DNA of 64,000 bases from Gemmatimonadaceae bacterium (GCA_036554285.1 DATBNO010000109.1:248-64247), one strand, 5' to 3'; shown: positions 658 through 56,563, counted from the first letter of the stretch. The notes: generated from the sequence alone by a model not told the origin. Numbers and translations are program-made.

Positions 658-1839
658 ATGCGGATTGTCTCGATCGCCGCGCATTCCGCCGTGATGCACG
701 GCCTGTGCACCATGGGATCGGTTGCGGCCTTTCTCACGCTTGCCCTCGGGCCGCCCCCTCTCGCCGCGCAAAGCGCGATGCCCCAAGGCACCGTCAACGC
801 ACTCGTTCGCGACACCAGCGGCGCGGAAATCACCGGCGCCGAGGTGGGCATCGCCGGTACCGACTTGCATGGCTACACCGACAGCGACGGCCGCCTCCGC
901 CTTGGCCCGGTCGCCGCCGGACCCGTCCGCCTAACGGTGCGGCGGTTGGGCTTCCGCGCGATGACGGTCGACCTCTCCGTCGCCGCCAATGGCGCAACGG
1001 CCGATACAGTGCAGTTGGTGGAGGTCGCGCACCGCCTCGACCCAATCCTCGTGCGTGGCTCGATCCATTCGTACAGCGGAACGATGTCCGGCTTCTACGA
1101 ACGCCGCGGCCAAGGCTTCGGCCACTTCTTCTCGCGCGCGGAAATCGAAAAGACGCACGTCACGCGTCTGAGTGACTTGTTTCGATACGTGCCCGGCATG
1201 CGCCTGGTGTCCACCAGCACAATCCAGAACGCGGTGCGCATGCGCGGCGCTACCACGTGCCCGCCGCTGGTGTGGCTGGACGGAACGCCCGCCGCCACGT
1301 CCGAATACGACCTCGACACGATGGACCCGCTTTCCATTGACGGCATCGAGATCTACAGCGGCCCGGCCGAAGTGCCCATGCAGTTCAAACCTCCTCTGGA
1401 CGTTGTGGCGTGCGGCGCGATCGTGATCTGGTCGCGGCGGGGCGAGCGGCACGACGAGTCGCCGTACGCGTCCGATCCCGACACATTGCAGAAGTTGGTG
1501 GCCGCGCTCACGATTTATACGGCCGACGAAGTGGACACGCCGGCGCATCAGGACACGGCGGTGCGCGTCCAGCCGGTCTATCCGGAAGCGCTCTTCATGT
1601 CGGGAACGAGCGGCAGGGTCGTCGCCGAATTCCTGGTCGACACGATGGGTCTCGTGTCGATGCCAACCTTTAGCGCCATCTCGTCCACCGACCCGGAATT
1701 CACGATTGCCGTTAGGCAGGCGTTGGAGAAAGCACAGTACGTGCCGGCCGTGCGCAAGGGCCAGAAGGTGCAGCAAGTGGTCGAACAGCCCTTCACGTTC
1801 GTCAGCGACAGCACCCTCGCCAAACGGCGCCGCGGCTGA
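658..1839 (+). CDS. Exported protein with carboxypeptidase-regulatory-like, TonB-receptor plug-like and TonB C-terminal-like domains
   Basis: ATG 658 is preceded by AAGGAGA (644-650) and followed by a hydrophobic signal-like N-terminus. Domain-like stretches: GTVNALVRDTSG...TDSDGRLRL (CarboxypepD_reg-like), FFSRAEIEK...VPGMRLV...VRMRG...LDG...IEIYSGPAEVP (plug-like), PVYPEALFMSGTSGRVVAEFLVD...PAVRKGQKV (TonB_C-like). The ORF-track start at 478 is judged too far upstream. Confidence 0.8.
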   Translation: MRIVSIAAHSAVMHGLCTMGSVAAFLTLALGPPPLAAQSAMPQGTVNALVRDTSGAEITGAEVGIAGTDLHGYTDSDGRLRLGPVAAGPVRLTVRRLGFRAMTVDLSVAANGATADTVQLVEVAHRLDPILVRGSIHSYSGTMSGFYERRGQGFGHFFSRAEIEKTHVTRLSDLFRYVPGMRLVSTSTIQNAVRMRGATTCPPLVWLDGTPAATSEYDLDTMDPLSIDGIEIYSGPAEVPMQFKPPLDVVACGAIVIWSRRGERHDESPYASDPDTLQKLVAALTIYTADEVDTPAHQDTAVRVQPVYPEALFMSGTSGRVVAEFLVDTMGLVSMPTFSAISSTDPEFTIAVRQALEKAQYVPAVRKGQKVQQVVEQPFTFVSDSTLAKRRRG

Positions 1840-1844
1840 CGATG

Positions 1845-1871
1845 AGGCCGGCCGGCCCACTCGGCCGGCCT
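1845..1871. terminator. GC-rich hairpin between convergent genes (AGGCCGGCC-loop-GGCCGGCCT), overlapping a GCCTAACG copy
   Basis: A 9-10 bp perfect stem read directly (1845-1853 pairs with 1863-1871). No U-tract on either side, so terminator function is uncertain. Confidence 0.35.
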
Positions 1872-1881
1872 AACGGAGAGG

Positions 1882-2628
1882 CTACAGGACCGTCAGCGAG
1901 TCGGACTCGCCCGAGAGCGCGTCCAGATATTGCTGCATCTCGAGCACCCGTTTCTGCCCCTCGCGCTTGGCGGCGTCGCTCTGCAGCAATTTCGGCATCT
2001 CGACCATCTGCTGCCTGATCGCCGCCACCGCGTGCGCGAGGTCGGGCGTGAATTTCTCGCGCGTCGTGAGCGAGATGATGCGCGCCACGTCGATGGCACC
2101 CAGGAAGTCGAGGATGTCCGCGTCGCGAAACAGCACCGCCACGCGGAGCGTGTCGGGCGGCCGGTAGTACTGGTGATGGTCGATGATCTCCTTCACCAGC
2201 GCCGATTTCTCCATCGGGAATCCCGCGTCGCGGAGCACGCTGTCGACGAGCTGGATCGACCGGTCGCCGTGGTCCACGTTGGGCAGCGCGTAGGGCGGAA
2301 TGCCGCCCATGTCGTGCAGGTAGGCCGCGGCGTAGAGCGCGTCGTCGTCCACCGTCAGGCCTTCGGCCTTGGCCAGTGCCAGCGTCGTCTCGTAATCGCG
2401 GCGGCCGTGCGCCGGGCCCCATGCGGTGTGCTGCAGGTGCGCCTCGGCGAATGCCAATACTTTGGCACGCCACGGCGCCTGGGCGCCCGTGTCGCCCGGG
2501 GGCACCCGCCTAACGGCGACGGCGTGCGGCGCCGGCTTCGCCACCGCCGCAGCGCCGCCCGCCAACAGCGCGACCGGAAGGAGCACGACCAACACGGTAC
2601 CGCCACGACGCCGTCCGGTGTCACGCAT
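1882..2628 (-). CDS. HD-domain phosphohydrolase with N-terminal signal/anchor
   Basis: Contains YLHDMGGIP...DHGDRS...IIDHHQYY HD-domain histidine/aspartate pattern. Internal Met start MRDTGRRRGGTVLVVLLPVALLAGGAA chosen at 2628. Confidence 0.8.
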   Translation of the reverse strand: MRDTGRRRGGTVLVVLLPVALLAGGAAAVAKPAPHAVAVRRVPPGDTGAQAPWRAKVLAFAEAHLQHTAWGPAHGRRDYETTLALAKAEGLTVDDDALYAAAYLHDMGGIPPYALPNVDHGDRSIQLVDSVLRDAGFPMEKSALVKEIIDHHQYYRPPDTLRVAVLFRDADILDFLGAIDVARIISLTTREKFTPDLAHAVAAIRQQMVEMPKLLQSDAAKREGQKRVLEMQQYLDALSGESDSLTVL

Positions 2629-3037
2629 GGGGAGCTCGCGAGTGAATGGAGGGTGACGAGGCGCGCTCGGCCACGTCCGGCGCCGGCAGCGCATCGAGCG
2701 GGGATTGGCCTAACGCATCGGGCGCCGGCCGCCACCGCCGCGACCGCGTCACCATCCAGAGGCAGTAGAGCGCCAACGGCGGTACGCCGATCCAGAGCGC
2801 GATCTCGAGCGCCGTCGCCGATGCGATGTGCGTTGCCTTGCCGAACTCCGACACGGTGATCGAGAGGAGCGAATTGTCGAACGAGGCGTTCACCGTCGAT
2901 GTGTCCTTGGGCATATGCGTCGCGTGAATCATCGCGAGAATCGTCGGCGTGAGCGTCACGCCGGCCAACCCGACCCAGTACACACACCACGCCGTGATCA
3001 CGTGCCACGGCCGCCATCGAGCCAGAAACGACTTCAT
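2621..3037 (-). CDS. Hypothetical small membrane protein
   Basis: This is the C-terminal 139 codons of ORF 2621..3796, starting MKSFLARWRPWHVITAWCVYWVGLAG, with 2-3 hydrophobic segments. The part upstream of 3037 is antisense to hlyD and looks non-coding. No family recognised. Confidence 0.5.
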   Translation of the reverse strand: MKSFLARWRPWHVITAWCVYWVGLAGVTLTPTILAMIHATHMPKDTSTVNASFDNSLLSITVSEFGKATHIASATALEIALWIGVPPLALYCLWMVTRSRRWRPAPDALGQSPLDALPAPDVAERASSPSIHSRAPHA

Positions 3038-3070
3038 GACCGCCTCCCGCCAGAAAGCAAGACCTTGACG

Positions 3071-3103
3071 ATTCAAACAGTCGTTTAATACAATTGTTTG
3101 AAT
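3071..3103. promoter_or_regulatory. Perfect 9-bp inverted repeat ATTCAAACA-N15-TGTTTGAAT in an AT-rich divergent promoter region; candidate operator for the operon-encoded TetR
   Basis: Read directly. It lies 46 nt upstream of the hlyD ATG and is flanked by TTGACG (3065-3070) and TTGACA (3103-3108) -35-like hexamers. Confidence 0.45.
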
Positions 3104-3148
3104 TGACACGCCGGCCCCAAAACGTCGCTGGTCCGGAGCCCGACACTC

Positions 3149-4210
3149 ATGACTCGAAAACAGCTGGCCGCGGGAGGAGGCGCTGCGCTCCTCGTCGCCG
3201 TCGTCATCGTCTACATCGTCACGCGCTCGCCTGCACCCCTCGAGCTCACCGGCGTCGTCACCACGAACGATGTCATCGTGAGTCCGCAGGTCGGCGGCCA
3301 ACTGAGCCGGCTCCTCGTCGCCGAAGGCGATTCGGTGACGCAGAACCAGCTGCTCGCCGTCCTCGAACCCGGTGAGCTCGCGGCCGATCAGTCGTACTAC
3401 GCTCAAAACGCGCAGGCGATGGCGTCGCAGGTTCACGAATCCGCCGCCGATTTGCATTACCAGGAAACGCAGGCGGATCAACAGGTCCGTCAGAGCGAGG
3501 CCACACTCGCCGCCGCGATTGCCCAAGCCGTAATGGACTCTGCCACCATGGCCAACGCCAAGCAAGTGTACGACCGCTACGGTCCCCTGCTCCACGCGGG
3601 CGCCGTGTCGTCCCAACAAGTCGACTCCGCTCGCACAGGATACACCGTCGCGCTCTCCCGGTTCGACGCCTCGTCCAAGCAGGTCGACGCGCAGCGCGCC
3701 GCCCTCGCGATGGCGCACGCCACCGAAGACCAGGTCCAGGCCAAACGAAGCGCCTTGGCGGGCGCCCGCCAGGCGCAGGCGGCGGCGCAGGCGCAAACGC
3801 GGAAGGCCGACGTGCGGCTCGCCTACACCGAGCTGCGCGCGCCGATCGCCGGCATCATCGACGTCCGCGCCGCCCGCGCGGGCGAGTACGTGGGCCCGGG
3901 CCAGCCCGTGGTCACGCTCATCAACCCCGACAGCCTCTGGGTGCGCGCCGACGTCGAGGAAACGTACATCGACCGCGTTCGGTTAGGCGAGCACCTCACC
4001 GTGCGGCTGCCATCCGGCGAGGAGCGCCAGGGCACCGTATTCTTCCGCGGCATCGACGCCGACTTCGCGACGCAGCGCGACGTGAGCCGCACCAAGCGCG
4101 ACATCAAGACGTTCGAGATCCGCCTGCGCATCGACAACCGCGACCGCCGGTTGGCCGACGGCATGACGGCCTACGTGCTGTTGCCCCTCGACGCACGGCA
4201 CGCCTCGTGA
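3149..4210 (+). CDS. HlyD-family membrane fusion / secretion protein
   Basis: N-terminal TM, then LTGVVTTNDVIVSPQVGGQLSRLLVAEGDSVTQNQLLAVLEP lipoyl-like hairpin, a long coiled-coil and a C-terminal beta-barrel (LRAPIAGIIDVRAARAGEYV). Confidence 0.9.
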   Translation: MTRKQLAAGGGAALLVAVVIVYIVTRSPAPLELTGVVTTNDVIVSPQVGGQLSRLLVAEGDSVTQNQLLAVLEPGELAADQSYYAQNAQAMASQVHESAADLHYQETQADQQVRQSEATLAAAIAQAVMDSATMANAKQVYDRYGPLLHAGAVSSQQVDSARTGYTVALSRFDASSKQVDAQRAALAMAHATEDQVQAKRSALAGARQAQAAAQAQTRKADVRLAYTELRAPIAGIIDVRAARAGEYVGPGQPVVTLINPDSLWVRADVEETYIDRVRLGEHLTVRLPSGEERQGTVFFRGIDADFATQRDVSRTKRDIKTFEIRLRIDNRDRRLADGMTAYVLLPLDARHAS

Positions 4211-5196
4211 CCGTCTCCATCGACGTCCGCGACATCGTCAAGCGGTTCGGCGATTTCACGGCCGTGGACGGCATCTCGTTCGCCGTCGACGACGGCGAGA
4301 CGTTCGGGCTCCTCGGGCCTAACGGCGCCGGCAAGTCCACGCTCATCCGCATGCTGACCACGCTGCTCCTGCCCACGTCGGGCACGGCAGTCGTGGGCGG
4401 ATACGACATCGTGAAGGACGCCGATCGCGTGCGCCGGGCGATCGGCGTGATTCCGCAGGCGCTCACGAGCGACCTCGATCTCACGGCCGAGGAGAACCTG
4501 TCGATCTTCGCCAAGCTCTACGGCGTGCCGCGCGAGCGCCGCAAGGCATTGATCGCCGATCTCCTGGCGTCGGTCGAGTTGAGCCAATGGGCGGACAAAC
4601 CGGTGAAGAATCTGTCGGGCGGCATGCGGCGCCGCGTCGAGATCGCGCGCGGGCTGGTGCACGAGCCGCGCATTCTGTTTCTCGACGAGCCGACCACGGG
4701 CCTCGATCCGGTGTCGCGGACGTCGGTGTGGGAGATGCTGCGCACCATCAAGAGCGAACGCCGCCTAACGGTGCTGCTCACGACGCACTACATGGACGAA
4801 GCCGACAAGCTCTGCGACCGCATCGCGATCGTGGATCATGGCAGCCTCAAGGCGCTCGACTCGCCGATGAAGCTCAAGGCGGCGATCCCCGGCGAGAACA
4901 CGCTCGAGGTGAGCTTCGCCCGCGAGCCCGCCGACTGGGCGGCGCGCCTGGCCGCGCTCCCCGCCGTGGTGCGCGTGGAAGGCGAGCCGCCGGTGTTCCG
5001 CATCGTGTCCACGAGCGGGCCGCAAACGACCAACGCACTCATGACGATGGCCGCCGCCGCCGGCGTCTCGATCAGCTCGCTCTCGGTGCAGAGCACATCG
5101 CTCGACGACGTGTTCGTGCACTACACGGGTCACCAGCTGCGCGACGCGCTCCAGGAGCCGGCGCCCACCGACAGCCGTTTCATGATGAGACGTTAG
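4207..5196 (+). CDS. ABC transporter ATP-binding protein (ABC-2/DrrA type)
   Basis: Walker A GPNGAGKST, signature LSGGMRRRVEIARGL, Walker B ILFLDEPTTGLD. The GTG start overlaps the hlyD stop (GTGA). The TAG stop is inside CGTTAGGC (5191-5198). Confidence 0.95.
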   Translation: MTVSIDVRDIVKRFGDFTAVDGISFAVDDGETFGLLGPNGAGKSTLIRMLTTLLLPTSGTAVVGGYDIVKDADRVRRAIGVIPQALTSDLDLTAEENLSIFAKLYGVPRERRKALIADLLASVELSQWADKPVKNLSGGMRRRVEIARGLVHEPRILFLDEPTTGLDPVSRTSVWEMLRTIKSERRLTVLLTTHYMDEADKLCDRIAIVDHGSLKALDSPMKLKAAIPGENTLEVSFAREPADWAARLAALPAVVRVEGEPPVFRIVSTSGPQTTNALMTMAAAAGVSISSLSVQSTSLDDVFVHYTGHQLRDALQEPAPTDSRFMMRR

Positions 5197-5198
5197 GC
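5191..5198 (-). repeat. Copy of the over-represented 8-mer (CGTTAGGC on + strand) acting as an intercistronic junction
   Basis: It contains the TAG stop of the ATPase gene and ends 2 nt before the ATG (5201) of the permease gene. The context is CGTTAGGCATATG. Confidence 0.9.
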
Positions 5199-5200
5199 AT

Positions 5201-6319
5201 ATGCAGCGGACCTGGGCCATCATCGAGCGCGACCTGCGCCGCTTCCGCCGCAGCCCGGCGCTCATCATCATGTCGCTGCTCATGCCGATCGTGCAGCTCG
5301 TGGTGTTGGGCTACGCGTTCGGCGGCAATGTGAAGCACCTCAAGGTGGCGCTGGTGGACGAGGACGGTGGCGTCCCCGCTGTGCGCCTCCACGCACTCGC
5401 CAACGCCGTCGCCGAGAACGCGCAGACGTTCGAGACGATTCCCTACGGCGATCGCGGCCAGGCACTCGCCGCCCTGCGCAACGGCGCCGTCAACGGCGTC
5501 CTCACCATTCCGCCGGGGTTCTCGCGCCGCGTACTGGAGAAGGACGACCCGCGCGTCGCCCTCATCGAGGACAACACCGACAACTTCGTCACGGCGGCGC
5601 TGGCCGGCACCTTCGGCAGTCTGTTAGGCGCCTACAACCGGCCCCCGCCCAGCACGCGCCGGCTTTCGTCCGACCCGACGCTCGAGACGGTCGAGCTCTA
5701 TCCGTACGTGCCCTACATCCAGTACCTGCTGCCCGGCTCCATCGTGATGTCGATCTTCATGATGGTGATGATCGGCGGCGGGATCATCTACATCGATGAC
5801 AAAGCCCGCGGCCTGCACGAGGGCTACCTCGTCACGCCCATCACCCGCCTCGAGCTGATCTTCGGGTTCAACGCGGCGGGCGCGATCAAAGCCATCATCG
5901 CCGGCGGCGTGCTCATGACAATCGGGTCGCTCATCGCGGGCATCCCGAATCCGTTCGATCCGGTCCGGTTGGTGCGGCTCTTCATCGTGATCGCGGTGTC
6001 GTCGGTGGCGCTGGTGAGCATGATGTTCTTGCTCATGGTGCGCATGAACGATCCGCTCTTGCCGCGCGCCTTGTTCGGGGTGCTGAACACGCTGCTCTGG
6101 TTCCCGAGCGGCGCCATCTATCCGCAACAGGCATTCCCGAAATGGATGCGCGCGCTCGCGACGGTCGACCCGTTCACGTACGCCGTGCACGCCCTCAAGA
6201 GCCTGCTGCTCAAGAACACGGGCTTCTCGGCCATCTGGTTCGACCTGCTGTACCTCGCCGTGTTCTCGGTGCTCACCATGATCGCGGCCACGCTGCTCTT
6301 CAAGCGCACGCTGTCATGA
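5201..6319 (+). CDS. ABC-2 type transporter permease
   Basis: N-terminal TM, large extracytoplasmic loop, and C-terminal 5-6 TM bundle typical of ABC-2 permeases. Follows the ATPase gene directly. Confidence 0.9.
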   Translation: MQRTWAIIERDLRRFRRSPALIIMSLLMPIVQLVVLGYAFGGNVKHLKVALVDEDGGVPAVRLHALANAVAENAQTFETIPYGDRGQALAALRNGAVNGVLTIPPGFSRRVLEKDDPRVALIEDNTDNFVTAALAGTFGSLLGAYNRPPPSTRRLSSDPTLETVELYPYVPYIQYLLPGSIVMSIFMMVMIGGGIIYIDDKARGLHEGYLVTPITRLELIFGFNAAGAIKAIIAGGVLMTIGSLIAGIPNPFDPVRLVRLFIVIAVSSVALVSMMFLLMVRMNDPLLPRALFGVLNTLLWFPSGAIYPQQAFPKWMRALATVDPFTYAVHALKSLLLKNTGFSAIWFDLLYLAVFSVLTMIAATLLFKRTLS

Positions 6320-6975
6320 CCGCCCGCCGCCACGCGCCTAACGGAACAGAGTCGGATACGGCCACGCACGGGCGCCTCCTCGCCGCGGCCACACGCCTGT
6401 TCGCCCAACACGGGTTTCACGCCGTGAGCGTGCGCGACATCGCGCGCGCGGCCCGGGCGAACGTGGCCGCCGTGAATTACCACTTCGACGGCAAGCTCGG
6501 CCTCTATCGCGCTGTGGTGCGCGCCGCCGTGCACGCCATGCGCGCCGGCGACGACGCCTATCTCACCGCCCAAACCGACGCGTCGCCCGAAGACCAGCTG
6601 CGCACGTACGTGTCAGGCTACCTGCCGCGCATCGCGTCGACCGACGATCGCACGGCGTGGATTCACGATCTCATGCGCCACGAGATGTCCGAACCCACGC
6701 CGCTCGCACCGTGGATCGCCGAGCACGGCATCATGCCGCGCATCGAGTTCCTGTCCGGTGTGGTCGCGAAGCTCCTCGGCTGCAAGCCGGCCGACAAGCG
6801 CGTCGCCCGCTGCGTCATCAGTATCCAAGCGCAGTGTTTGTTCTATCGACCCGATCGATTTCGCACCGCGGCGTTCAAGGAATGGGCGGTCACCGTCGCC
6901 GATCTCGCCGCGGTCGCCGATCACATCGTCGAGTTCTCGCTCGCCGGCATCAAGCGGATCGCGACGCGTGGTTAG
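6316..6975 (+). CDS. TetR/AcrR family transcriptional regulator
   Basis: HTH region LLAAATRLFAQHGFHAVSVRDIARAARANVAAVNYHF. The ATG overlaps the permease stop (ATGA). Confidence 0.9.
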   Translation: MTARRHAPNGTESDTATHGRLLAAATRLFAQHGFHAVSVRDIARAARANVAAVNYHFDGKLGLYRAVVRAAVHAMRAGDDAYLTAQTDASPEDQLRTYVSGYLPRIASTDDRTAWIHDLMRHEMSEPTPLAPWIAEHGIMPRIEFLSGVVAKLLGCKPADKRVARCVISIQAQCLFYRPDRFRTAAFKEWAVTVADLAAVADHIVEFSLAGIKRIATRG

Positions 6976-8453
6976 GGACTCTGCATCGCCACGCGCGGCG
7001 GCCGGCGCTTCATCAGCGCTTCGACTTCCGAGATCTCGCGCGGCGCGTCGCTCGACATCCGCTTCAGCCCGTTCGCCGTCATCACGTAGTCGTCCTCGAT
7101 GCGGACGCCCACGTTCTGGTAGCGCAGCACCACGGGCCGCACGCGCGCGATGAATGCGCGATTGCGTGGGGTGTCGGGCAGCGCATCGAGCGTGCGCGTA
7201 CTGATGTAAATCCCCGGCTCGATCGTGAACGCGTCGCCCGGTTTGTAGGCGTTCGTGCCATAGTAGAACTGCACGGGATCGTGCACGGCGAGACCGAGTC
7301 CATGGCCGAGGCCATGGATCATCCAGAGGAGCGCTTGCGTGCACGCTCTCGGGTTCTTGGCGCAGTCCGGACTCCCGGGTGGATCGATCTGCGCGTTGGC
7401 GCTGTCGATCAAGCCGAGCGCGGCCAATCCGCGCGCGCGAACCGCGAAGGCTGAGTCGCTGGCTGCCACCGCGCTTGCGCCGGGGGTGCTGGCCCTTTCC
7501 GCCGCCGCCTGTGCGTCGCGCACGAGTTGATAGATCTTCCGCTGCTCGGCTGTGAACACGCCGCTCACCGGCAGCGTGCGCGTGATGTCCGCGGCGTAGC
7601 CGTGATACTGCGTGGCCGCATCGATCACGACGAGATCGCCGGGCTTGGCGGCCGACGTGTCCAACATGTAGTGCAGCTGCGTGCTGTTGAGCCCCGCGCC
7701 CACGATGGACCCGTACGCCGGACGGTCGCCGCCTAACCGCTTGAAGGTGTACTCGGCCACCGCTTGCCATTCGTATTCGTGCTTGGGCTCGGGCGATTCC
7801 ATAATCGCGCGATGTCCGGCCGCGCTGATGGTTGCCGCCCGCTCGAGCAGCGCGATCTCGGCCGGCGACTTGCGCGCGCGCAGCTCGTCGACCACCGGCT
7901 CGGCGTCGTCGAGCTTGACCGATGCATGGGCGGCATGAAAGGCGTTCAGGAACATCCGCCCGCGCGTGAGCGAATCCTCGCGGGTGAAGTCGTCATCCTC
8001 GACGTCCGGGATCGCGTACACCGTTAGGCCGGACGATGCGAGCGAATCCATCAGGGGCGCCAGCGCCGAGAACGGACGCGCCGTTAGGCCGTTGTCGCGC
8101 GCGATCTGCGACGAGTCGGGCCGGAATCCGTAGTAGAACGCGAGATGCGGATCCACCGGCGTGGTGAAGAGCGTCGTGGTCTGGCGGCCGCCGCGCATCA
8201 CCATCACGAACGCCGCGTCGGGCTGTTGGTAGTCCGTGAGATAACGGAATGATGCCAGTTGGTAGAACGGGCCGAAGTCGGTGACCGGCGTGCGCGCCCC
8301 GAACGCGATGACGATGCCGCTGTCGAGCCGCGCCGCCAGCGAGTCGCGGCGCGCGGCGTACTCGGCCTGCGTGATCTGCGCCGCCGCGGAGGTGCCGGCG
8401 CACAGCGCGATAAGACCTGCGAGCACACATCGTCTGGCAACGGATGGAGACAT
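6972..8453 (-). CDS. Xaa-Pro aminopeptidase (peptidase M24B) with signal peptide
   Basis: Start MSPSVARRCVLAGLIALCAGTSAAAQ. Creatinase/prolidase N-domain, then the M24 metal-ligand region HGLGHGLGLAVHD...FTIEPGIY...VRIEDD. The ORF-track extension to 8978 is rejected. Confidence 0.9.
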   Translation of the reverse strand: MSPSVARRCVLAGLIALCAGTSAAAQITQAEYAARRDSLAARLDSGIVIAFGARTPVTDFGPFYQLASFRYLTDYQQPDAAFVMVMRGGRQTTTLFTTPVDPHLAFYYGFRPDSSQIARDNGLTARPFSALAPLMDSLASSGLTVYAIPDVEDDDFTREDSLTRGRMFLNAFHAAHASVKLDDAEPVVDELRARKSPAEIALLERAATISAAGHRAIMESPEPKHEYEWQAVAEYTFKRLGGDRPAYGSIVGAGLNSTQLHYMLDTSAAKPGDLVVIDAATQYHGYAADITRTLPVSGVFTAEQRKIYQLVRDAQAAAERASTPGASAVAASDSAFAVRARGLAALGLIDSANAQIDPPGSPDCAKNPRACTQALLWMIHGLGHGLGLAVHDPVQFYYGTNAYKPGDAFTIEPGIYISTRTLDALPDTPRNRAFIARVRPVVLRYQNVGVRIEDDYVMTANGLKRMSSDAPREISEVEALMKRRPPRVAMQSP

Positions 8454-8617
8454 GATGTTCACCGGAGCATTGTGAAAGTGAGGAGCGCAAACTGGTCGTG
8501 GCGCCGGCGCGAGTGTCCAGACTATAGCGATACCCGATAGCGTGCGGAAGCCGGGACGATGCTGCTTGAAGTCCGCGGGGTCGCGGGTTCCCGTGACCCC
8601 GGCGGAGCGCCGAGCGA

Positions 8618-9124
8618 TCAGCCGTAGCGATAGACCAACGCCGGCCCGTTGTAGAAGTCGATCTCCGTGTCGAACACGGCGCCTAACGATTGGGCCACGC
8701 GAATCGACCCGGCATTCGCCGGCCGAATCACGCTGATGATGTTGGTGCGACCGAGCACGGTATGCGCATAGGTGAGCGCCGCCGCCGCGCCTTCGCGCGC
8801 AAAGCCGCGTCTCCAGAATGGTTGGCCGAGTGTGTAGGCGATCTCGAAGCCCGGGAAGCCCTCGGGTTGCTGACATCCGATGCGTCCCATGAGTGCGCCC
8901 GTCGCTTTCTCCTCCACGGCCCACAGTCCGAAGCCGAGCAGCGTCCAGTGTCCGAGGATCATGGCCATTTGTCGCCATGCGTCCGTTCGCGACAGCGGTT
9001 TTCCATCGCCGAGGTATTTGGTGACTTCCGGGTCGCCAATGATGGCGGCGTATTCATCGATGTCGCGTTGCACGAAGGCGCGCAGCACGAGACGATCGGT
9101 GATGAGTGTGGGAATCGCAGTCAT
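8618..9124 (-). CDS. GNAT family N-acetyltransferase (RimJ/RimL-like)
   Basis: Start MTAIPTLITDRLVLRAF...; includes FWRRGFAREGAAAALTYA acetyl-CoA binding motif A. Confidence 0.9.
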   Translation of the reverse strand: MTAIPTLITDRLVLRAFVQRDIDEYAAIIGDPEVTKYLGDGKPLSRTDAWRQMAMILGHWTLLGFGLWAVEEKATGALMGRIGCQQPEGFPGFEIAYTLGQPFWRRGFAREGAAAALTYAHTVLGRTNIISVIRPANAGSIRVAQSLGAVFDTEIDFYNGPALVYRYG

Positions 9125-9214
9125 GTGCTTGCTCTTCGTCGTTCGCGATACGAGAATGGTGTCTGACGTCCGATTGTCCGCCCGCCCGCAACTGCCGCTT
9201 TCGGAGCCCTCATC

Positions 9215-10623
<1,409 letters not shown>

Positions 10624-48473: not shown

Positions 48474-48504
48474 GGTCGCGCCGGTTGAAAGTTAGGCGAA
48501 GGCG

Positions 48505-49158
48505 TCACGCCGCTCCCGCGTTGTCCGCTGTTTCGTCCCGATGGATGGACCGCCACTCGGCGCGCCATTCGCACGTGCCCTCCCCGCGAGCGGCGCACCG
48601 CACGTGATCGACCGATCCGCCGCTCGCACCGAGCAACCGGAGCAGCTCCCGAAAGAACGACTCGTAGTACGCGCACCCGACACCGCGCGGCGACACGTCG
48701 ACCGTGGCCGACCGCGGCACCTCGAGAATCAGGAACGACCCGTGGCGCCGCACCGAGCCGTTGAGATACTTGCCGGCGATGCGCTGGGTTTGACGGAGCG
48801 CGATCGGACGCGCGAGCAACGATGGCAGCGATGCGATCAGTCCGCGCGACGCCGATGGAATCGACTGATAGGTCTGTGCCGCGAGATACCGGCCCGCGGC
48901 ACGGAACACCGCTTCGGCGTCGGGCCGTCGGCCGAGCAGCTTCGCGATGCCGACAGTTTCTTCGTACTCGGTTCGTTGATGCTTCTTCGCCGCGTCCGTG
49001 AAGCGCTGAATCTGCGCATAGACGGTATCGCTCAACCCGAGGCGTTTGTTCCGCAATTCGGGGACGAGCTCCGCGTCGAGGTCGTCGTCGGGGCTGTCCA
49101 CGCTGCGAACCGCCTCGAGAAAACTCAGCGGGAGAAGCGCGTCGACCGTTGTATGCAT
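48505..49158 (-). CDS. Hypothetical protein, possible V4R-like (Cys-containing small-molecule-binding) C-terminal domain
   Basis: Start MHTTVDALLPLSF at 49158. The C-terminus GCAYYESFFRELLRLL...VRCAARGEGTCEW resembles V4R domains; this assignment is tentative. Confidence 0.6.
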   Translation of the reverse strand: MHTTVDALLPLSFLEAVRSVDSPDDDLDAELVPELRNKRLGLSDTVYAQIQRFTDAAKKHQRTEYEETVGIAKLLGRRPDAEAVFRAAGRYLAAQTYQSIPSASRGLIASLPSLLARPIALRQTQRIAGKYLNGSVRRHGSFLILEVPRSATVDVSPRGVGCAYYESFFRELLRLLGASGGSVDHVRCAARGEGTCEWRAEWRSIHRDETADNAGAA

Positions 49159-49323
49159 TGAATGAGGCAGGAACGCTGAATGGCAGCACCCAAGGTAACG
49201 GGCGTGAGAGGGGGGTTCAAGATTTTTGGGAACCGATCGCACCACCCAATGCTTCAACATCGGAACGATCGCCGAGCCGTGAGGGCTCACTAACCGGGGC
49301 CTGGGTCTACAATCGAGAGCGGA

Positions 49324-49605
49324 ATGAACACCACTCCACACCCGGACGACAGGTCCTCAATGACGTGCACCGAGGTACTCCAACGAATCTACGAGTATCT
49401 CGACGGCGAGCTCACTCCGGAAATCGAGCTCAAAATTCGCGATCACTTGGCGTGTTGCCAACGGTGCTTTCCGCACTTCCGCCATGAGCAAGTTTTCTTG
49501 CGATTCCTGGAACGGCGAGCCACGATCGTCAATGCCCCTCCGGCACTGCGCCGCCGCATCATGCAAATGTTGATCGACGAGGAAGCCTCGCGCCCGTTGG
49601 AGTGA
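49324..49605 (+). CDS. Zinc-binding anti-sigma factor (ZAS / RsrA-like)
   Basis: CTEVLQRIYEYLDGEL...DHLACCQRC contains the HxxxCxxC ZAS motif. An alternative Met start lies at 49360. No sigma-factor gene is adjacent. Confidence 0.8.
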   Translation: MNTTPHPDDRSSMTCTEVLQRIYEYLDGELTPEIELKIRDHLACCQRCFPHFRHEQVFLRFLERRATIVNAPPALRRRIMQMLIDEEASRPLE

Positions 49606-50390
49606 TCGCGCGCACGGCTGTCGGGTTCGCGTTGGCGTGCGCGATCTCGTTGGTCGCGTGGCGCGCACGCGCGCTGTCGCGCAGTGGCGCACTGACGGCA
49701 ATAATCGTCGGTACGGCAGCGCTCGCCGCGGGCTGGTCGTGGGGCGCTCTTCTTTTTGCTTTCTTTGTGACCGGCACCGCGCTTTCGCGCGCCCAACGCG
49801 AAAACAAGTTGCGCCGCACGGAATCCGTCGTCGCCAAAGGCGGAACACGAGACGCGGTGCAAGTGCTGGCCAACGGCGGCCTGTTTGCCCTGGCGGCACT
49901 AGCGTCTCTCGTGGCTCCGGCCATTGCCTGTATGGCGATCGGTGGTGGGGCACTTGCAGCCGCTTCGGCGGATACATGGGGTACGGAGGTGGGAACACTT
50001 TCGTCCCGGTCCCCTCGATTGATCACTACGTGGCGACGGGTCGCTACCGGAACGTCCGGTGGCGTCACGATCGTCGGCCTCCTCGCAAGCGTCGCCGGGG
50101 GGGTGTTCGTCGGGGTAATGGCGTGGCTCGTGCACTGGCCACCACACGTTGCGGTCGCCGCGGCCGCAGGCGGAATAGCAGGCGCGTTGGCGGATTCGTT
50201 CGCCGGCGCAGTCCTGCAGTCTCGACGGCGATGCGCCCGATGCGGGGCGCTAACCGAACGAGCCGTGCACACCTGCGGCGACGTCACGCAACGGATCGGA
50301 GGCATTCCATGGTTGGACAACGACGGGGTGAATCTGCTGGCGGGGCTCACGGGAGCGGCGGTCGCGCTCATGCTAGCCGGACACCGATAA
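49602..50390 (+). CDS. DUF92 (TMEM19/VTE6-like) integral membrane protein
   Basis: SRSGALTAIIVGT...KGGTRDAVQVLANGG...ADTWGTEVG...TSGGVTIVGLLAS are the conserved DUF92 blocks. The GTG start overlaps the anti-sigma stop (GTGA). Confidence 0.88.
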   Translation: MIARTAVGFALACAISLVAWRARALSRSGALTAIIVGTAALAAGWSWGALLFAFFVTGTALSRAQRENKLRRTESVVAKGGTRDAVQVLANGGLFALAALASLVAPAIACMAIGGGALAAASADTWGTEVGTLSSRSPRLITTWRRVATGTSGGVTIVGLLASVAGGVFVGVMAWLVHWPPHVAVAAAAGGIAGALADSFAGAVLQSRRRCARCGALTERAVHTCGDVTQRIGGIPWLDNDGVNLLAGLTGAAVALMLAGHR

Positions 50391-50416
50391 GGGCGGCGCT
50401 CGCGCGCGCGGCATGC

Positions 50417-50833
50417 GTGGCGCTGGCGGTCGTGGCGGTGGCCTGCATCGACACGACGCCGACGCAATACTTCAATCAGGGCGGCTTCAATTCGAACGGC
50501 TCGAGCGGCGGCGGCGGTTCGGGCGGCGCAATCGACAGCAATCTCGTCGGGACGTGGACGGAGACGATCGTCGACACGGTGAACGGCGATCCGACGAACC
50601 AGCAAACGATTTGGGCGTTCAACGCCAACGGCACAGCGTCGCTGACGGTGATAACGTTCGACATCACCACGAGCGCCGCGGACACGACGATCAAGAACGG
50701 CACGTGGACGGCCGACGGCAGCACGGTGACGATCACGTTCCAGGCGCCGAACACGGGGACTGAGGAGTTTACGTACGTCATCAATGGCAGCACACTCTTG
50801 CTCGGACAAACAGAGTTCGTGCGAACAGGGTGA
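50417..50833 (+). CDS. Hypothetical small lipoprotein (Gly/Thr-rich beta protein)
   Basis: The frame of ORF 49637..50833 becomes protein-like only from ALAVVAVAC (lipobox) onward (GTWTETIVDT...GTWTADGSTVTITF). The only nearby start is GTG 50417, so the start is uncertain. Confidence 0.5.
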   Translation: MALAVVAVACIDTTPTQYFNQGGFNSNGSSGGGGSGGAIDSNLVGTWTETIVDTVNGDPTNQQTIWAFNANGTASLTVITFDITTSAADTTIKNGTWTADGSTVTITFQAPNTGTEEFTYVINGSTLLLGQTEFVRTG

Positions 50834-50903
50834 CGACGCGCCCCGGTCCGCTCCGTTAGGGCGCGGCCGACCGGCGGCGTCTTCGCCGCCGTCGCGCCCG
50901 CGG

Positions 50904-52334
50904 GTGCTCCTCGTGAGCACCAATCGAGAGCGGCAGCCGATGCCCGTCGTGCCTAACGGCGTGGCGTGTGTGGCATCGGCGTTGGACCAAGCCGGATACA
51001 CGGTGCGGGTGGCGGATCTGTGTTTCGCCTCCGATCCTCATGCCGCCGCCCGCGCCGCGGCCCGCTCCTTCCAGCCGGACGTCATCGGCGTCTCGGTCCG
51101 CAACATCGACAACAGCGACCTCATCGCGCTCGAGCACTACACGCCCGAGGCGAGCGCCGTGTTGCGCACGCTGCGCGACGCGGCGCCCGACGCGCGCGTG
51201 ATCGCCGGCGGCGCGGCGTTCGGCGTCGCACCGGCGTCGTTGTTCGACGAGTTAGGCGTGGAGTTCGCCGTGGCCGGCGACGGCGAGCGGGCGACCACGG
51301 CGCTTCTCGATGCGCTCTCCGCGGGACGCGACCCGGCCGGCATTCCCGGCGTGGTGTCCCGCGGCCAGACGGCCACCGTCGTGACGCCGCCCGGCGGCGA
51401 TCCGGACGTGGATGCCTTCCCCTCGGCGCGCATGCATCGCTGGCTCGATCTCGCCAGGTACGAGCGGCGCGGCGGCACGGTGCCGATACAGACCAAGCGC
51501 GGCTGCGTGTTCAAGTGCATTTACTGCACGTATCTCAACGTCGAGGGTTGGGGGTATCGCCTGCGCGATCCCGAGCACGTCGTCGACGAAATGGAAGAGT
51601 TGGTGCACGACGCGGGTGTGCGGCACTTCGAGTTCGTGGACTCGACGTTCAATGCTCCGCCCCGCCATGCGGCCGCGATCTGTGAAGCGATCACGCGTCG
51701 CCCGCTGCGCGTCAAGCTGGACACGACCAACTTCACACCGGCTGCCGTGCCGCCCTACTTGCTCGACCCGATGCGCGCCGCGGGGTTCCGCTGGTTAGGC
51801 ATCACCGCCGAGAGCGCGAGCGACCCGGTGCTCGAGCGGCTCGAGAAGGGATTCGACGCGGCGCGCGTGAGGCAAGTGGCGGGCGAGGTCGAACGCGCCG
51901 GCATCGGCGTCCTCTGGATTTTTCTCGTCGGCGGTCCGGGCGAAACGATGCGGACGCTGAACGAAACGCTCGCCTTCGCGGTCGAGCGACTCGAGCGCGG
52001 CGACGCGGTGTACCTCACCGTTGGGCTGCGAGTGTATCCGGGCACGACGCTCCACCGGGTCGCGCTCGACGAGGGCGTCGTCGAACACGGTGATCCGCTC
52101 CTCGTGCCGCGATTCTATTTCTCGAGCGCGCTCTCGTTCGAGGCGGCGGTCGCGCGGCTGCGCCAAGTTGCGGCCCGCCATCCGCGGTTCATGTTCTCGG
52201 CCGACTCGCGGTCGGCGATTCTGCCGTACTTGACGCGGCTCGCATCGGTGTTGCACTTGCCGCGTCCGCATTGGCGGTACATGGGACTGTTCCAGCGAGT
52301 GGCCCGGTTGGGCGACCGCGTGCGCGCCGGCTAA
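50904..52334 (+). CDS. B12-binding-domain radical SAM protein (class B)
   Basis: N-terminal Rossmann-like B12 domain (VLLVSTNRE...VIGVSVRN), then CVFKCIYC (CxxxCxxC) radical-SAM cluster motif. GTG 50904 is preferred over ORF-track ATG 50784, which overlaps the lipoprotein gene. Confidence 0.9.
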   Translation: MLLVSTNRERQPMPVVPNGVACVASALDQAGYTVRVADLCFASDPHAAARAAARSFQPDVIGVSVRNIDNSDLIALEHYTPEASAVLRTLRDAAPDARVIAGGAAFGVAPASLFDELGVEFAVAGDGERATTALLDALSAGRDPAGIPGVVSRGQTATVVTPPGGDPDVDAFPSARMHRWLDLARYERRGGTVPIQTKRGCVFKCIYCTYLNVEGWGYRLRDPEHVVDEMEELVHDAGVRHFEFVDSTFNAPPRHAAAICEAITRRPLRVKLDTTNFTPAAVPPYLLDPMRAAGFRWLGITAESASDPVLERLEKGFDAARVRQVAGEVERAGIGVLWIFLVGGPGETMRTLNETLAFAVERLERGDAVYLTVGLRVYPGTTLHRVALDEGVVEHGDPLLVPRFYFSSALSFEAAVARLRQVAARHPRFMFSADSRSAILPYLTRLASVLHLPRPHWRYMGLFQRVARLGDRVRAG

Positions 52335-53561
52335 GTGACGCGCGCGCAGGTGATCGTGGTTGGCGCCGGGCCGGCGGGCAGCTCCACGGCGTGGCATCTG
52401 GCACGACTCGGCATCGACGTGCTGGTGCTGGACCGCGCGCGGTTTCCGCGCGACAAACCCTGCGCCGAGTACTTGAGTCCCGAGGCATCGCGGCTGCTGG
52501 ACGCGATGGGCGCGCTTGCGGCGTGCGAAGCGGCGGGCGCGGCGCAGCTCGCGGGCATGGTGGTGCGCGCGCCTAACGGAACGCTGTTGCGCGGCGATTT
52601 CGCGGCCGCGCACGGCTTTCGCGGATTCCGGGACCGCGGATTGGCGCTCCGCCGGTCGGTGCTCGACGCGCTGCTGCTCGAGCGCGCGCGCGCCGCAGGC
52701 GCGCGCGTGGTCGAGGAGCAGCGCGTGACAGGCCTCGTGCGGGACGCACGAGGCGCCGTGACGGGCATCGAAACGCTCGATGCAAGCGGACACACGGCCG
52801 AGCGGCAGGCGGCGATCATCGTGGGCGCCGACGGATTGCGATCGGTGGTGGCGCGCCGGCTCGGTCTCTCGCGCGCGCGACGGCGCCCCAAGCGGGTGGC
52901 GATGATCGCGCATTATCACGGCGTGGCGGGCATGGGAGCGTACGGCGAGATGCACGTGGAGCGGGATGGGTATGCGGGGTTTGCGGACGTGGGGAGTGGT
53001 GTGACCAACGTCGCCGTCGTCGCCCCGGCGACGCGCGTCAAGCGCGCCGCCATGGCGCCGGCGGCCTTCTTCGACGCATGGCTCGCAGCGCATCCACACT
53101 TGGGCGCCCGCCTGGCGGGCGCCCAGCGTGTGGATGCGGTGCGAGCGACGGGGCCGTTCGCCCACCACGCGCGCCGCGCGTGGGCGCGCGGCGCGGCGCT
53201 GGTGGGCGACGCGGCTGATTTCTTCGATCCGTTCACCGGCGAAGGCATCTACGCGGCGCTCCGCGGCGGCGAGATGCTCGCGCCGCACATCGTCGCCGCG
53301 CTCGACGCGCGGTCGCCGCGCGATGCCGATGCCGCCCTCGCGGCGTACGACGCCGAGCGACGTCGCACGTTCGCCGGCAAGTGGAGGGTCGAGCGACTCG
53401 TCGCCCTCGCGGTCGCGGTCCCCGCCCTCATGAATCGCGCAGCGGCCACACTCGGCCAGCGAAAAGACATGGCCGATTTGTTCGTCGGCGTCGCCGGCGA
53501 CTTCGTGCCGCCGAGCGAAATTCTGTCGGTGCGCTATCTTCTCCGCCTGCTTGCCACCTGA
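52335..53561 (+). CDS. FAD-dependent oxidoreductase of the geranylgeranyl-reductase family
   Basis: VIVVGAGPAGSSTAWHLARLG dinucleotide fold, GADGLRSVV, GDAADFFDPFTGEGI. The GTG start abuts the rSAM stop with a 0-nt gap. Confidence 0.9.
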   Translation: MTRAQVIVVGAGPAGSSTAWHLARLGIDVLVLDRARFPRDKPCAEYLSPEASRLLDAMGALAACEAAGAAQLAGMVVRAPNGTLLRGDFAAAHGFRGFRDRGLALRRSVLDALLLERARAAGARVVEEQRVTGLVRDARGAVTGIETLDASGHTAERQAAIIVGADGLRSVVARRLGLSRARRRPKRVAMIAHYHGVAGMGAYGEMHVERDGYAGFADVGSGVTNVAVVAPATRVKRAAMAPAAFFDAWLAAHPHLGARLAGAQRVDAVRATGPFAHHARRAWARGAALVGDAADFFDPFTGEGIYAALRGGEMLAPHIVAALDARSPRDADAALAAYDAERRRTFAGKWRVERLVALAVAVPALMNRAAATLGQRKDMADLFVGVAGDFVPPSEILSVRYLLRLLAT

Positions 53562-53577
53562 CGGAGCTCCCGCCGAC

Positions 53578-54051
53578 ATGATCGATGCCCCGACGTTTCG
53601 CAGCACGCTCGGCCGCTTTGCCACCGGCGTGACGGTGCTCACGGCGCGCGACGCGAGCGGCCGCGATCACGGCATGACCGTGAGCGCGTTCTGCTCGGTG
53701 AGTCTCGATCCGCCGCGCGTGTTGTGCTGTGTCGAGCGCAGCGCCGACATGTATCCCATCATCCAGGCCGCGTCGCACTTCGCGATCAATATTCTGACGA
53801 CGGCGCAGGAGCCGATTTCGCGGCGGTTCGCCGAGGAGCGCGACGACCGGTTCGACGGGTTGGGCTACACCCGCGGCCTAACGGGATTGGTGCTGCTCGA
53901 GGACACGCTCGCCTACCTCGAGTGCGCGGTGGCGGCGCGGTACGACGGCGGCGACCATCTCGTCGTGTTGGGCGACGTGATCGCCGGCGCGGCGTCGGAC
54001 GGCCGCCCGCTGCTGTACTACCGCGGCGGCTACGCGCAGATGGAGCGGTGA
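53578..54051 (+). CDS. Flavin reductase-like (FMN-binding split-barrel) protein
   Basis: FRSTLGRFATGVTVLTA...GMTVSAFCSVSLDPP...HFAINIL. An alternative TTG start at 53551 overlaps the upstream gene. Confidence 0.88.
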   Translation: MIDAPTFRSTLGRFATGVTVLTARDASGRDHGMTVSAFCSVSLDPPRVLCCVERSADMYPIIQAASHFAINILTTAQEPISRRFAEERDDRFDGLGYTRGLTGLVLLEDTLAYLECAVAARYDGGDHLVVLGDVIAGAASDGRPLLYYRGGYAQMER

Positions 54052-54761
54052 TCGCCGTCACGCCGCGTCCGCGCCGCGGGCGCGAATATCTGGATGACGC
54101 CGAGCAGATGGACACGCTCGTCGTCCGCCAATCGTTAGGCGATGTGGCGCGCGCCAACGCGCTCTTCGGCGGCACGCGGGCGGTGCTGGCGGAGCTCGCC
54201 CGTGCGGTGCGACACGCAGGGGATGGACGGCGGCCGGTCACGCTGCTCGACGTGGGCACGGGCCGCGGCGACATCCCGGCGGCGGCGGCGGCCTGGTGCA
54301 CCCGCCACGGCGTGGTCCTCGAAACGGTGGGCATCGAGAAATCCGAGTCGCTGGCGCGCATCGCGGCCGATCACACCACGGTCCTCTCCGCCGACGCGCT
54401 GCACCTGCCCTTCGCGAATCGGAGTGTCGACATCGTGATGTGCTCGCAGGTCCTCCACCACTTCGAGCGCGCCGATGCGATGACGGTGTTGCGTGAGATG
54501 CACCGCGTGGCGCGCCGTCGCGTGGTCGTGAGCGATCTGCATCGCAGCTGGCTCGCCGCCGCCGGCATCTGGCTCGCCTCGTATCCGCTCCTATTCCATC
54601 CGGTGAGCCGGCACGACGGTGTGCTGTCGGTGTTGCGCGGCTTCACCCGCGGCGAGTTGGGCGAGTTGGTGCGCCAGTCCGTTGGGCAGGACGCTCACGT
54701 CCGCTACCGGTTGGGCTTTCGCGTGACGGCCTCGTGGACGCCCGCGGAGCGCGACCAGTGA
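54048..54761 (+). CDS. Class I SAM-dependent methyltransferase
   Basis: Motif I LLDVGTGRGDIP and post-I/II region LPFANRSVDIVMCSQVLHHF. GTGA overlap with the upstream stop. Confidence 0.85.
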   Translation: MIAVTPRPRRGREYLDDAEQMDTLVVRQSLGDVARANALFGGTRAVLAELARAVRHAGDGRRPVTLLDVGTGRGDIPAAAAAWCTRHGVVLETVGIEKSESLARIAADHTTVLSADALHLPFANRSVDIVMCSQVLHHFERADAMTVLREMHRVARRRVVVSDLHRSWLAAAGIWLASYPLLFHPVSRHDGVLSVLRGFTRGELGELVRQSVGQDAHVRYRLGFRVTASWTPAERDQ

Positions 54762-55282
54762 CGGACCCCCGCATCGCGTTGCGTGATCCGGTTCGACTGC
54801 CGGCCATGCCCGACGGATGGTCGATGCGCGTGATCGACGAGCGCGTGGTCAAGGCGAGCGTCCGCACGATGTTTGCGCTGGCACGCGAGGTGGATCGGTG
54901 GCCGGAACATCTCGCGCACTATCGGTGGGTGCGATTCGACCAGCGCGACACGGAGGGAGGCGGTCTCGTCGCGATGTCAGCGTCTCGTCCGTTTGGGCGA
55001 ATGGTGTGGCCAACGTGGTGGACGTCGGAGATGGGCATCGACGATGCGCGTCCGGCGATTCGTTTTCGTCACGTGCACGGCGTCACGCGAGGCATGGAAG
55101 TGGAGTGGACGTTCACGGAGCGGAATGACGGCGTGCTCGTTCGCATCGTACATTGCTGGAACGGGCCGGGGTGGCCGTTGATTGGTGTCGCAGCGGCCCG
55201 ACACGTCATCGGGCCCGTGTTCATTCATGGCATCGCGAGTCGAACGCTGGCTGGGTTGGCCGCGGTCGCGGAGCGCCGGTGA
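54758..55282 (+). CDS. SRPBCC (polyketide cyclase/dehydrase-like) family protein
   Basis: VKASVRTMFALAREVDRWPEHLAHY...EVEWTFTERNDGVLVRIVH is typical of the Polyketide_cyc2/START-like fold. GTG 54758 overlaps the upstream stop; an alternative ATG lies at 54734. Confidence 0.8.
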   Translation: MTDPRIALRDPVRLPAMPDGWSMRVIDERVVKASVRTMFALAREVDRWPEHLAHYRWVRFDQRDTEGGGLVAMSASRPFGRMVWPTWWTSEMGIDDARPAIRFRHVHGVTRGMEVEWTFTERNDGVLVRIVHCWNGPGWPLIGVAAARHVIGPVFIHGIASRTLAGLAAVAERR

Positions 55283-55324
55283 CGGCGCGCGCAACTTCAT
55301 CTCGAGCACACGGCACATAACGAC

Positions 55325-56563
55325 ATGTCACGTCGCGTAGTGATTACCGGCATCGGCTGCATCACTCCCATTGGCAGCACCGTCGATGGTTTGTGGTGCG
55401 GACTGCAGGCGCAGCGGTCCGCGGTCACCGAACTGTCGCGGTTCGATCCGTCGCCGTTCCGGAGTCACCTGGCGGCGGAAGTGCGCGACTTCGAGCCTAA
55501 CGACTTCCTGGATCGCAAGCGGGCGCGCCGGTTGGACCGGTTCGGGCAATTTTCCGTGGTGGCGGCGCGGATGGCGATCGAGGACGCGCACCTGGACCTC
55601 GCCGTCGAGGACAAGGAGCGCATCGGCACCATGATGGGCACTGCGTTAGGCGGCGTGGGCTACGCCGAGGAGCAGTGCGGCGTGTACTATCGCGGCGGTC
55701 TCCGGGACGTGGATCCGGCGCTGGCACTCATGGTGTTCGGCGGCTCGTCCAGCTGCAACATCGCGATCGAGTTCGGCGTGCAGGGGCCGAACAGCACCAA
55801 CGCGATGAGCTGTGCGTCGGGCACGATCGCGATCGGCGATGGCTTCCGGCAGATCCGCGACGACTACGCGGACGTGATGATCTGCGGCGCGGCGGAAACG
55901 CCGCTGTGGCCGTTGTGCTTCGGCGCGTTCGCGATCATTCGCGCCATGTCGACCCGCAACGCCGATCCGGCGAGCGCCAGCCGTCCGTTCGACCGCGATC
56001 GCGATGGATTCGTGATGGCCGAAGCGGCGGCGGTGCTGGTGATGGAAGAGCGCGACCGCGCGATCGCGCGCGGGGCGCCGATCTACGGCGAGGTGTTGGG
56101 CTTCGGCATGTCCAACGACGCCTACCACATGACGGCGCCGCGCCCCGATGGCTCACAGGCGGCGAAGTCGATGCGCCGCGCGCTCGACGACGCGCACGTG
56201 CGTCCCGAGGAAATCGACTACGTGAACGCGCACGGCAGCTCGACGCCGCTCAACGACACCACGGAAACGCTGGCGATCAAGCGGGTGTTCGGCGAGCGCG
56301 CGTACCGGATCCCGGTGAGCGGCACCAAGGGCTACTACGGCCATGCGTTAGGCGCGAGCGGCGCGATCGAGGCGGCCATTTGCGCGCTGGCGATGACGCG
56401 CGACTGGCTGCCGCCCACGGTGAATCTGGCCACGCCCGACGAGGGCTGCGACCTGGACTACATCCCGCGCATCGGCCGCGCCGCCCAGCCCGAGCTGCTG
56501 TTGTCGAACTCGTTCGGCTTCGGCGGGATCAACGCCGCGCTCGTGCTGCGGAAGGCGAGCTGA
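55325..56563 (+). CDS. Beta-ketoacyl synthase (KAS I/II, FabF-like), stand-alone
   Basis: RVVITGIGCITPIG, active-site Cys MSCASG, His contexts DAYHMTAP and NAHGSSTP, and C-terminal GFGGINAALVL. Confidence 0.95.
   Translation: MSRRVVITGIGCITPIGSTVDGLWCGLQAQRSAVTELSRFDPSPFRSHLAAEVRDFEPNDFLDRKRARRLDRFGQFSVVAARMAIEDAHLDLAVEDKERIGTMMGTALGGVGYAEEQCGVYYRGGLRDVDPALALMVFGGSSSCNIAIEFGVQGPNSTNAMSCASGTIAIGDGFRQIRDDYADVMICGAAETPLWPLCFGAFAIIRAMSTRNADPASASRPFDRDRDGFVMAEAAAVLVMEERDRAIARGAPIYGEVLGFGMSNDAYHMTAPRPDGSQAAKSMRRALDDAHVRPEEIDYVNAHGSSTPLNDTTETLAIKRVFGERAYRIPVSGTKGYYGHALGASGAIEAAICALAMTRDWLPPTVNLATPDEGCDLDYIPRIGRAAQPELLLSNSFGFGGINAALVLRKAS

Follow-up and report, generated by a model that had tools for sequence, protein, structure and literature searches.

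The closest known systems to the element described here are the DNA uptake sequences (DUS) of Neisseriaceae (GCCGTCTGAA, with its dialects and the receptor ComP) and the uptake signal sequences (USS) of Pasteurellaceae (AAGTGCGGT / ACAAGCGGT), which are short non-palindromic words present in thousands of copies, equally in both orientations and without replication polarity. To our knowledge, uptake sequences are known from these two proteobacterial families only, and their origin is debated, with molecular drive on one side and selection favouring the uptake of DNA from kin on the other. A second point of comparison is HIP1 (GCGATCGC) of cyanobacteria, a hyper-abundant palindromic octamer with two known methylases that is written through genes, is patchy among lineages, and whose function was long unknown. 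Here we characterize GCCTAAC(G), complement (C)GTTAGGC, a non-palindromic word of 7 to 8 letters, in a 64,000-nt stretch (G+C 67.5%; hereafter the window) from a soil-dwelling Gemmatimonadaceae bacterium (GCA_036554285.1, DATBNO010000109.1:248-64247) and in the genome that contains it, which is 3.98 Mb long, in 124 contigs, 96.6% complete, and assembled from a metagenome. By analogy with the uptake systems, we propose with moderate confidence that GCCTAAC(G) may be a genome-wide uptake-sequence-like "self" word that has been spread by molecular drive. A literature search found no paper naming GCCTAAC(G) in this sense.

The window carries 98 copies of the 7-mer (61 + 37 on the two strands) and 70 of the 8-mer. 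Genome-wide, the 7-mer occurs 5,926 times, or once per 670 bp, with the copies split evenly between the strands (2,965 vs 2,961), and the 8-mer occurs 3,896 times. The density of 1,491 per Mb, vs 11 per Mb in motif-less relatives, amounts to a ~136-fold difference, comparable to the 15- to 300-fold reported for HIP1. Seven positions make up a strict core, and the weaker flanks can be written Y-GCCTAAC-G-N-A-A, with a pyrimidine before the core, G after it, and A at +2 and +3; flank preferences are alike in coding and intergenic copies. One-mismatch variants are enriched in a graded manner, GNCTAAC by 10- to 21-fold and GCCCAAC (= GTTGGGC) by 6-fold. Both the weaker flanks around a strict core and this gradient resemble DUS and USS, as over-representation graded by mismatch load has been described for uptake sequences (Bakkali 2007, PMC1939737), whereas the core of just 7-8 bp and the phylum, Gemmatimonadota, set the word apart from them. 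The copies in the window are distributed as follows:

1..64000, both strands: dispersed copies of GCCTAAC / GTTAGGC, 98 in all, with 45 read as G·TTA·GGC, 23 as G·CCT·AAC, 9 as GC·CTA·AC, 6 as GTT·AGG·C, and the other 15 spanning a gene end or lying outside called genes

Genes were called by codon-position composition (GC3-based), giving 3,396 genes and 91% coding DNA. The initial annotation of the window had listed 35 sites at which the word is read through as Pro-Asn, Leu-Thr, Val-Arg, or Leu-Gly, and with these gene calls all 35 carry GCCTAAC or GTTAGGC in the frame that had been named. Genome-wide, the commonest in-gene class is xxG·TTA·GGC (Leu-Gly), with 3,287 copies (63%), followed by xxG·CCT·AAC (Pro-Asn, 1,026) and xGC·CTA·AC (Leu-Thr, 615), and the rarest is GTT·AGG·C (Val-Arg, 295), which needs two rare codons. 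The annotation had confined the in-gene word to its stop-free frames; the four such frames are indeed filled, but the stop-containing frames, which it omitted, serve as real stops, as 144 of 537 TAA codons (27%) and 118 of 740 TAG codons (16%) lie inside the word. Examples of each use in the window are:

4317..4324, plus strand: Pro-Asn frame, GGG CCT AAC GGC GCC GGC AAG, encoding GPNGAGK, the Walker-A loop in the product of gene 4207-5196, an ABC-transporter ATPase by family match
42320..42327, plus strand: Leu-Gly frame, xCG TTA GGC
929..936, plus strand: Leu-Thr frame, xGC CTA ACG
1710..1717, plus strand: Val-Arg frame, C GTT AGG C
59642..59649, plus strand: a stop-supplying copy, in which CTA (59644-59646) reads on the minus strand as TAG and ends gene 59644-60615

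We ran the dipeptide comparison that had been proposed along with these sites, and the codon pairs of the word came out 19- to 50-fold above the expectation from single-codon usage. Leu-Gly is spelled TTA-GGC in 29% of cases where 0.6% is expected (50-fold), Pro-Asn is spelled CCT-AAC in 46% (2.5% expected, 19-fold), Leu-Thr is spelled CTA-ACG in 10.7% (0.5% expected, 22-fold), and Val-Arg is spelled GTT-AGG in 3.5% (0.09% expected, 39-fold). Conversion to the word thus ranks by frame as Pro-Asn (46%), Leu-Gly (29%), Leu-Thr (8-11%), and Val-Arg (3.5%), tracking codon cost, and a frame bias tied to codon cost is also a property of DUS and USS. TTA, CTA, and AGG are rare outside the word, as had been stated: TTA and CTA each make up 1.0% of Leu codons there, and AGG 1.8% of Arg codons. 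The further statement that almost every TTA, CTA, or AGG codon belongs to a copy holds for TTA, of which 3,287 of 4,444 (74%) lie inside the word genome-wide and 45 of 58 in the window, but not for CTA (35%; 9 of 27 in the window) or AGG (15%; 6 of 30); the corresponding shares are 32% for CCT (22 of 52) and 5% for GTT (6 of 91). The ribosomal-protein cluster, with 1.65 copies per kb, is at the genome average, and in forcing the rarest codons even into ribosomal-protein genes the word differs from DUS and USS.

The concentration of TTA in the word could also be read as translational regulation by a rare codon, as with bldA in Streptomyces, in which case selection would act on the codon. TTA is very rare outside the word, and there is a single gene for tRNA-Leu(UAA), which would suit such a mechanism; tRNA-Leu(UAG) and tRNA-Arg(CCU) likewise have one gene each. 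However, three other frames, the opposite orientation, spacers, and stop codons all show an equal enrichment of the word, and those 74% of TTA codons sit in the full word, with G before and GGC after. These frame and spacer data refute regulation through TTA, to which we assign virtually no likelihood.

Comparison with relatives points to the DNA itself. We aligned 81 orthologues with those of G011, a motif-less species of the same genus, at a mean identity of 76%. At 70 of 99 Leu-Gly motif sites, G011 has the same two residues, spelled CTC/CTG-GGC, and among the Leu codons of its orthologues TTA accounts for 0.10%, CTA for 0.14%, and TTG for 4.3%; the corresponding shares in all genes of the genome studied here are 3.7%, 1.5%, and 13.9%. 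The raised share of TTG, together with the enrichment of GCCCAAC, fits a stepwise route from CTG through TTG to TTA. The word also reshapes proteins, as both residues are present in G011 at only 6 of 23 Pro-Asn motif sites and Pro-Asn is enriched 1.55-fold in the proteome (Leu-Gly, 1.13-fold), and encoded peptides are likewise enriched in DUS and USS. Between species of the motif-rich clade, copies are held in place far above the synonymous-site expectation: in seven of eight comparisons, 86-100% of copies persist at sites that keep their residues (3 of 5 in the eighth), and four-fold sites are 57-77% identical, predicting retention of 16-46%. Because the word lies mostly inside genes and is written there with the rarest codons, the proposal of the initial annotation that selection or drive has the DNA word, and not the proteins, as its target is supported, and the codon-pair excess, the motif-less orthologues, the flanks shared with intergenic copies, the retention of copies, and the reshaping of proteins all speak for it.

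A force on DNA could also be mutational, and a repair bias that regenerates the word, for example very-short-patch repair coupled to a cytosine methylase, would be in keeping with the enrichment of some one-mismatch variants, notably GCCCAAC. We regard this as very unlikely, as copies persist at their positions instead of just being replaced by new ones, changes are needed at several positions (CTC/CTG to TTA alone takes two substitutions), and a local repair bias would not be expected to produce the interference in spacing described below. In addition, searches of the genome, which is 96.6% complete, revealed no Vsr, C5-methylase, or PF01555 methylase.

The spacing of copies was compared with a null in which they are scattered over all eligible dipeptide sites, and it is more even than this null, as in DUS and USS: short gaps (below 100 bp) occur at 0.33-0.43 times the expectation and long ones (above 1.2 kb) at 0.75-0.86 times, whereas those of 200-800 bp reach 1.2-1.5 times. 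The longest motif-free gap in the genome is at most 6.4 kb, in a metagenome assembly that may lack islands. The orientation of copies follows the gene strand only, because the Leu-Gly frame dominates, with GC skew contributing a few points, and no replication polarity was seen along a 299-kb contig of the host or the 5.3-Mb Gemmatirosa chromosome.

This bears on whether the word could be a polar sequence of the Chi type or of the type that orients FtsK (KOPS, FtsK-orienting polar sequences; AIMS, architecture-imparting sequences), with which it shares being an asymmetric and over-represented 8-mer. Besides the lack of replichore polarity, its enrichment lies orders of magnitude above that of Chi, which is enriched few-fold in E. 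coli, and no nuclease domain of the RecB/AddAB-type PDDEXK_1 family, and no RecBCD/AddAB-type nuclease, was found in the genome. A Chi- or KOPS-like role is close to refuted, and we consider it highly improbable.

Placement likewise weighs on the view that the word is a secondary recognition site of an integron integrase. GCCTAAC and GTTAGGC fit letter for letter the consensus of the attC core sites R'' (RYYYAAC) and R' (GTTRRRY), and the word is identical to the R'' of attC-aadB (PMC12901181). The genome encodes an integron integrase outside the window (G000:C86:2842-3768, minus strand; 398 bits vs a curated cut-off of 265), and such integrases are present in 223 of 401 Gemmatimonadaceae genomes (a share of the family also put at 59%) whatever their motif state, integrons being unusually common in the family. 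Unlike attC core sites, however, the copies are single, dispersed, and inside genes, and are not paired in a folded attC; inverted R''/R'-like pairs 50-150 bp apart are rarer than direct pairs, and it would be harmful for genes to contain thousands of integration sites. Motif-less genera carry the integrase as often (14 of 14 in g21) as motif-rich ones do, and among species of the host's genus both its presence and its absence are seen with and without the word. This lack of co-variation has already weakened the integron explanation, which has little probability in our assessment.

The distribution of the word is patchy down to species level within the genus, unlike that of DUS and USS. Among 24 species of the host's own genus that were sampled, 12 hold 1,400-2,100 8-mer copies per strand, one (G013) holds ~800, and the remaining species hold 2-37, fewer than a control word of the same composition. 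By identity ranks of three proteins, G013 adjoins the motif-rich clade and the motif-less species lie further out, which suggests that the word was gained once, within a motif-less grade of the genus. Across 400 genomes of the family, many genera are empty and others are motif-rich throughout (among them g19, g58, g64, g71, g76, g50, g83, g38, g79, and g87, the highest count being 3,960 copies per strand); in eight other genera sampled, the core is identical and the flanks differ slightly. Such sharing across a family is a further likeness to DUS and USS. These family-wide counts, like those for integron integrase, ComEC, and the minor pilins, include a few genomes flagged as unpublished (G047, G074, G173, G287, G331, G430, G445, G506, and G507), and no claim is based on them alone. 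The word is also found in a cultured organism, namely Gemmatirosa kalamazoonensis (G079, with contig 2 matching NZ_CP007129.1 exactly), where it is written into both the chromosome and a 1.1-Mb plasmid at 0.6-0.85 copies per kb.

Other words of comparable density, which could represent dialects, were found neither in ~55 motif-less loci nor in 235 kb of G011. An apparent dialect in L064, a Gemmatimonadaceae metagenome assembly, was rejected as it consists of tandem octamer arrays, four of them, made of GTCCTACC and located at 5500-5570, 6840-6890, 15040-15060, and 16350-16390, an arrangement that differs from that of the dispersed word. In another family of the order, two contig ends (G027:C95:1-24000 and G025:C3:1-8000) are motif-dense, with one copy per ~600 bp, in genomes that are otherwise motif-less, and 30 of the 31 copies in G027:C95 are on one strand; these ends are either transferred DNA or the result of chimeric binning.

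If GCCTAAC(G) is an uptake-type self word, a DNA-binding component of the machinery for uptake or recombination would prefer double-stranded DNA that bears it, and word-bearing fragments would replace homologous word-less ones more often than the reverse. Repeated over long periods, molecular drive of this kind, a biased gene conversion, would carry word-creating point mutations to fixation, and the same drive would keep existing copies against codon-usage selection. Coding constraint would then set where copies settle, namely in the four stop-free frames and, at gene ends, in the stop-containing ones, with each frame filled inversely to the number and rarity of the codons that it forces. We infer that drive explains copies that defy codon usage better than selection site by site, because with ~6,000 copies the benefit of any single one to a function that counts them would be very small, yet codon selection is resisted everywhere. 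The profile matches most of the uptake-sequence properties listed by Findlay and Redfield (PMC2817400) and departs from two, namely depletion in genes and inverted pairs of the terminator type.

These two departures, and the search for a reader, weigh against an uptake word. DUS and USS are under-represented in genes, and between genes they often form inverted pairs that serve as terminators, whereas the density of GCCTAAC(G) is 1.45 per kb in coding and 1.31 per kb in intergenic DNA, and close inverted pairs are not in excess. As readers we tested hand-picked candidates, none of which was seen to co-vary with the word, so that no reader has been found among them. The window itself encodes a plausible apparatus:

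25724..30819, minus strand: comEA-like (HHH_3) - pilB - pilT - pilC operon, candidate machinery for taking up DNA

Most of this operon lies in a 4.3-kb copy-free stretch with a G+C content of 62-63%, among the longest motif-free gaps of the genome. To these type IV pilus and ComEA genes, other loci add ComEC, DprA, a PilQ secretin, and eight genes of prepilin type. Motif-less species of the same genus share both the comEA-pil operon and ComEC, so the uptake genes do not discriminate between the two states. ComEA was rejected as the reader since it evolves fast everywhere and shows no step at the motif boundary, and so was ComEC, which is near universal; the genera without it (g72, g54, and g28) are all motif-less, but they are too few to count. 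Among the pilins, two minor ones from the C29 cluster look clade-specific within the genus, with identities of 73-95% inside the motif clade and of 38-54%, or no counterpart found, in motif-less congeners. Their nearest outside relatives, however, are in the motif-less g84 (64-66%), with only 42-47% identity in the motif-rich g71 and g19, so across genera the two do not track the word. In addition, we found no report of natural transformation in Gemmatimonadota in the literature.

Viral DNA adds a further difficulty. Two high-G+C viral contigs from IMG/VR (L198 and L191) have six copies each (0.4-0.6 per kb) where 0.1-0.15 copies would be expected from motif-less DNA, a count biased by two, as the contigs were found through a close pair of copies. 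One encodes tail and tape-measure genes and the other terminase and DNA-polymerase genes, and they are presumably phages of motif-rich hosts. Phages that carry the word are easier to explain with a reader inside the cell, although temperate phages of competent hosts could also accumulate words of this sort.

Such a reader is at the center of a different explanation, in which GCCTAAC(G) would be a HIP1-like word read in the nucleoid or in repair, defence, or methylation, a self mark or architectural site kept by selection. HIP1 copies are reported to hold their positions across species (Xu et al. 2018, PMC5861425), and GCCTAAC(G) is likewise retained in place; its even spacing, its similar density in genes and spacers, and its presence on chromosome and megaplasmid alike and also on phage contigs would be expected of a word with this role. 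The genome also provides candidate enzymes, an Eco57I/MmeI-type adenine methylase (1,085 aa) with an SNF2-family helicase (G000:C2:27040-32504, equal to L154:9040-14504) and a D12-class methylase. Nevertheless, per-copy selection would be minute at ~6,000 copies, which nonetheless resist codon-usage selection even in ribosomal-protein genes, and both methylases are equally present in motif-less species, with evenly spread divergence. The Eco57I/MmeI-type methylase and its helicase were rejected as they occur in all three families of the order, including motif-less members, with no jump in the specificity domain, and no genome of the genus, motif-rich or motif-less, lacks the D12-class methylase. 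HIP1 is palindromic and has two known methylases, whereas GCCTAAC(G) is asymmetric and no methylase here tracks it. HIP1 has itself been proposed to act in DNA uptake (PMC13756078), so this explanation may merge with that of an uptake word. We consider a HIP1-like role kept by selection a possibility, though a rather unlikely one. Apart from its relation to the word, the conservation of the methylase-SNF2 pair as a single copy across the order is odd for a restriction-type gene.

Returning to the uptake-type self word, GCCTAAC(G) could be, as we tentatively put forward, the first word for self-recognition of the DNA-uptake type outside Proteobacteria, with its specificity gained within the genus and its reader moved horizontally, since other genera employ an identical 8-mer. 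The genus offers a natural experiment, with ~4,000 8-mer copies in half of the species, fewer than the control word in the other half, and one lineage between the two. The force involved is strong, as TTA rose from 0.1% to 3.7% of Leu codons, proteins were altered, and even ribosomal-protein genes had the word written into them. In soil metagenomes, the word is also a sharp marker by which to bin contigs and recognize transferred DNA, and if it is an uptake tag, including it in constructs could render hard-to-handle soil bacteria transformable.

Apart from the word, the window contains three paralogous duplicated permeases of the ADOP family within 12 kb (12659-15310, 15745-18261, and 22145-24805), the third of which is followed by a gene for a PadR-type regulator (24807-25130).

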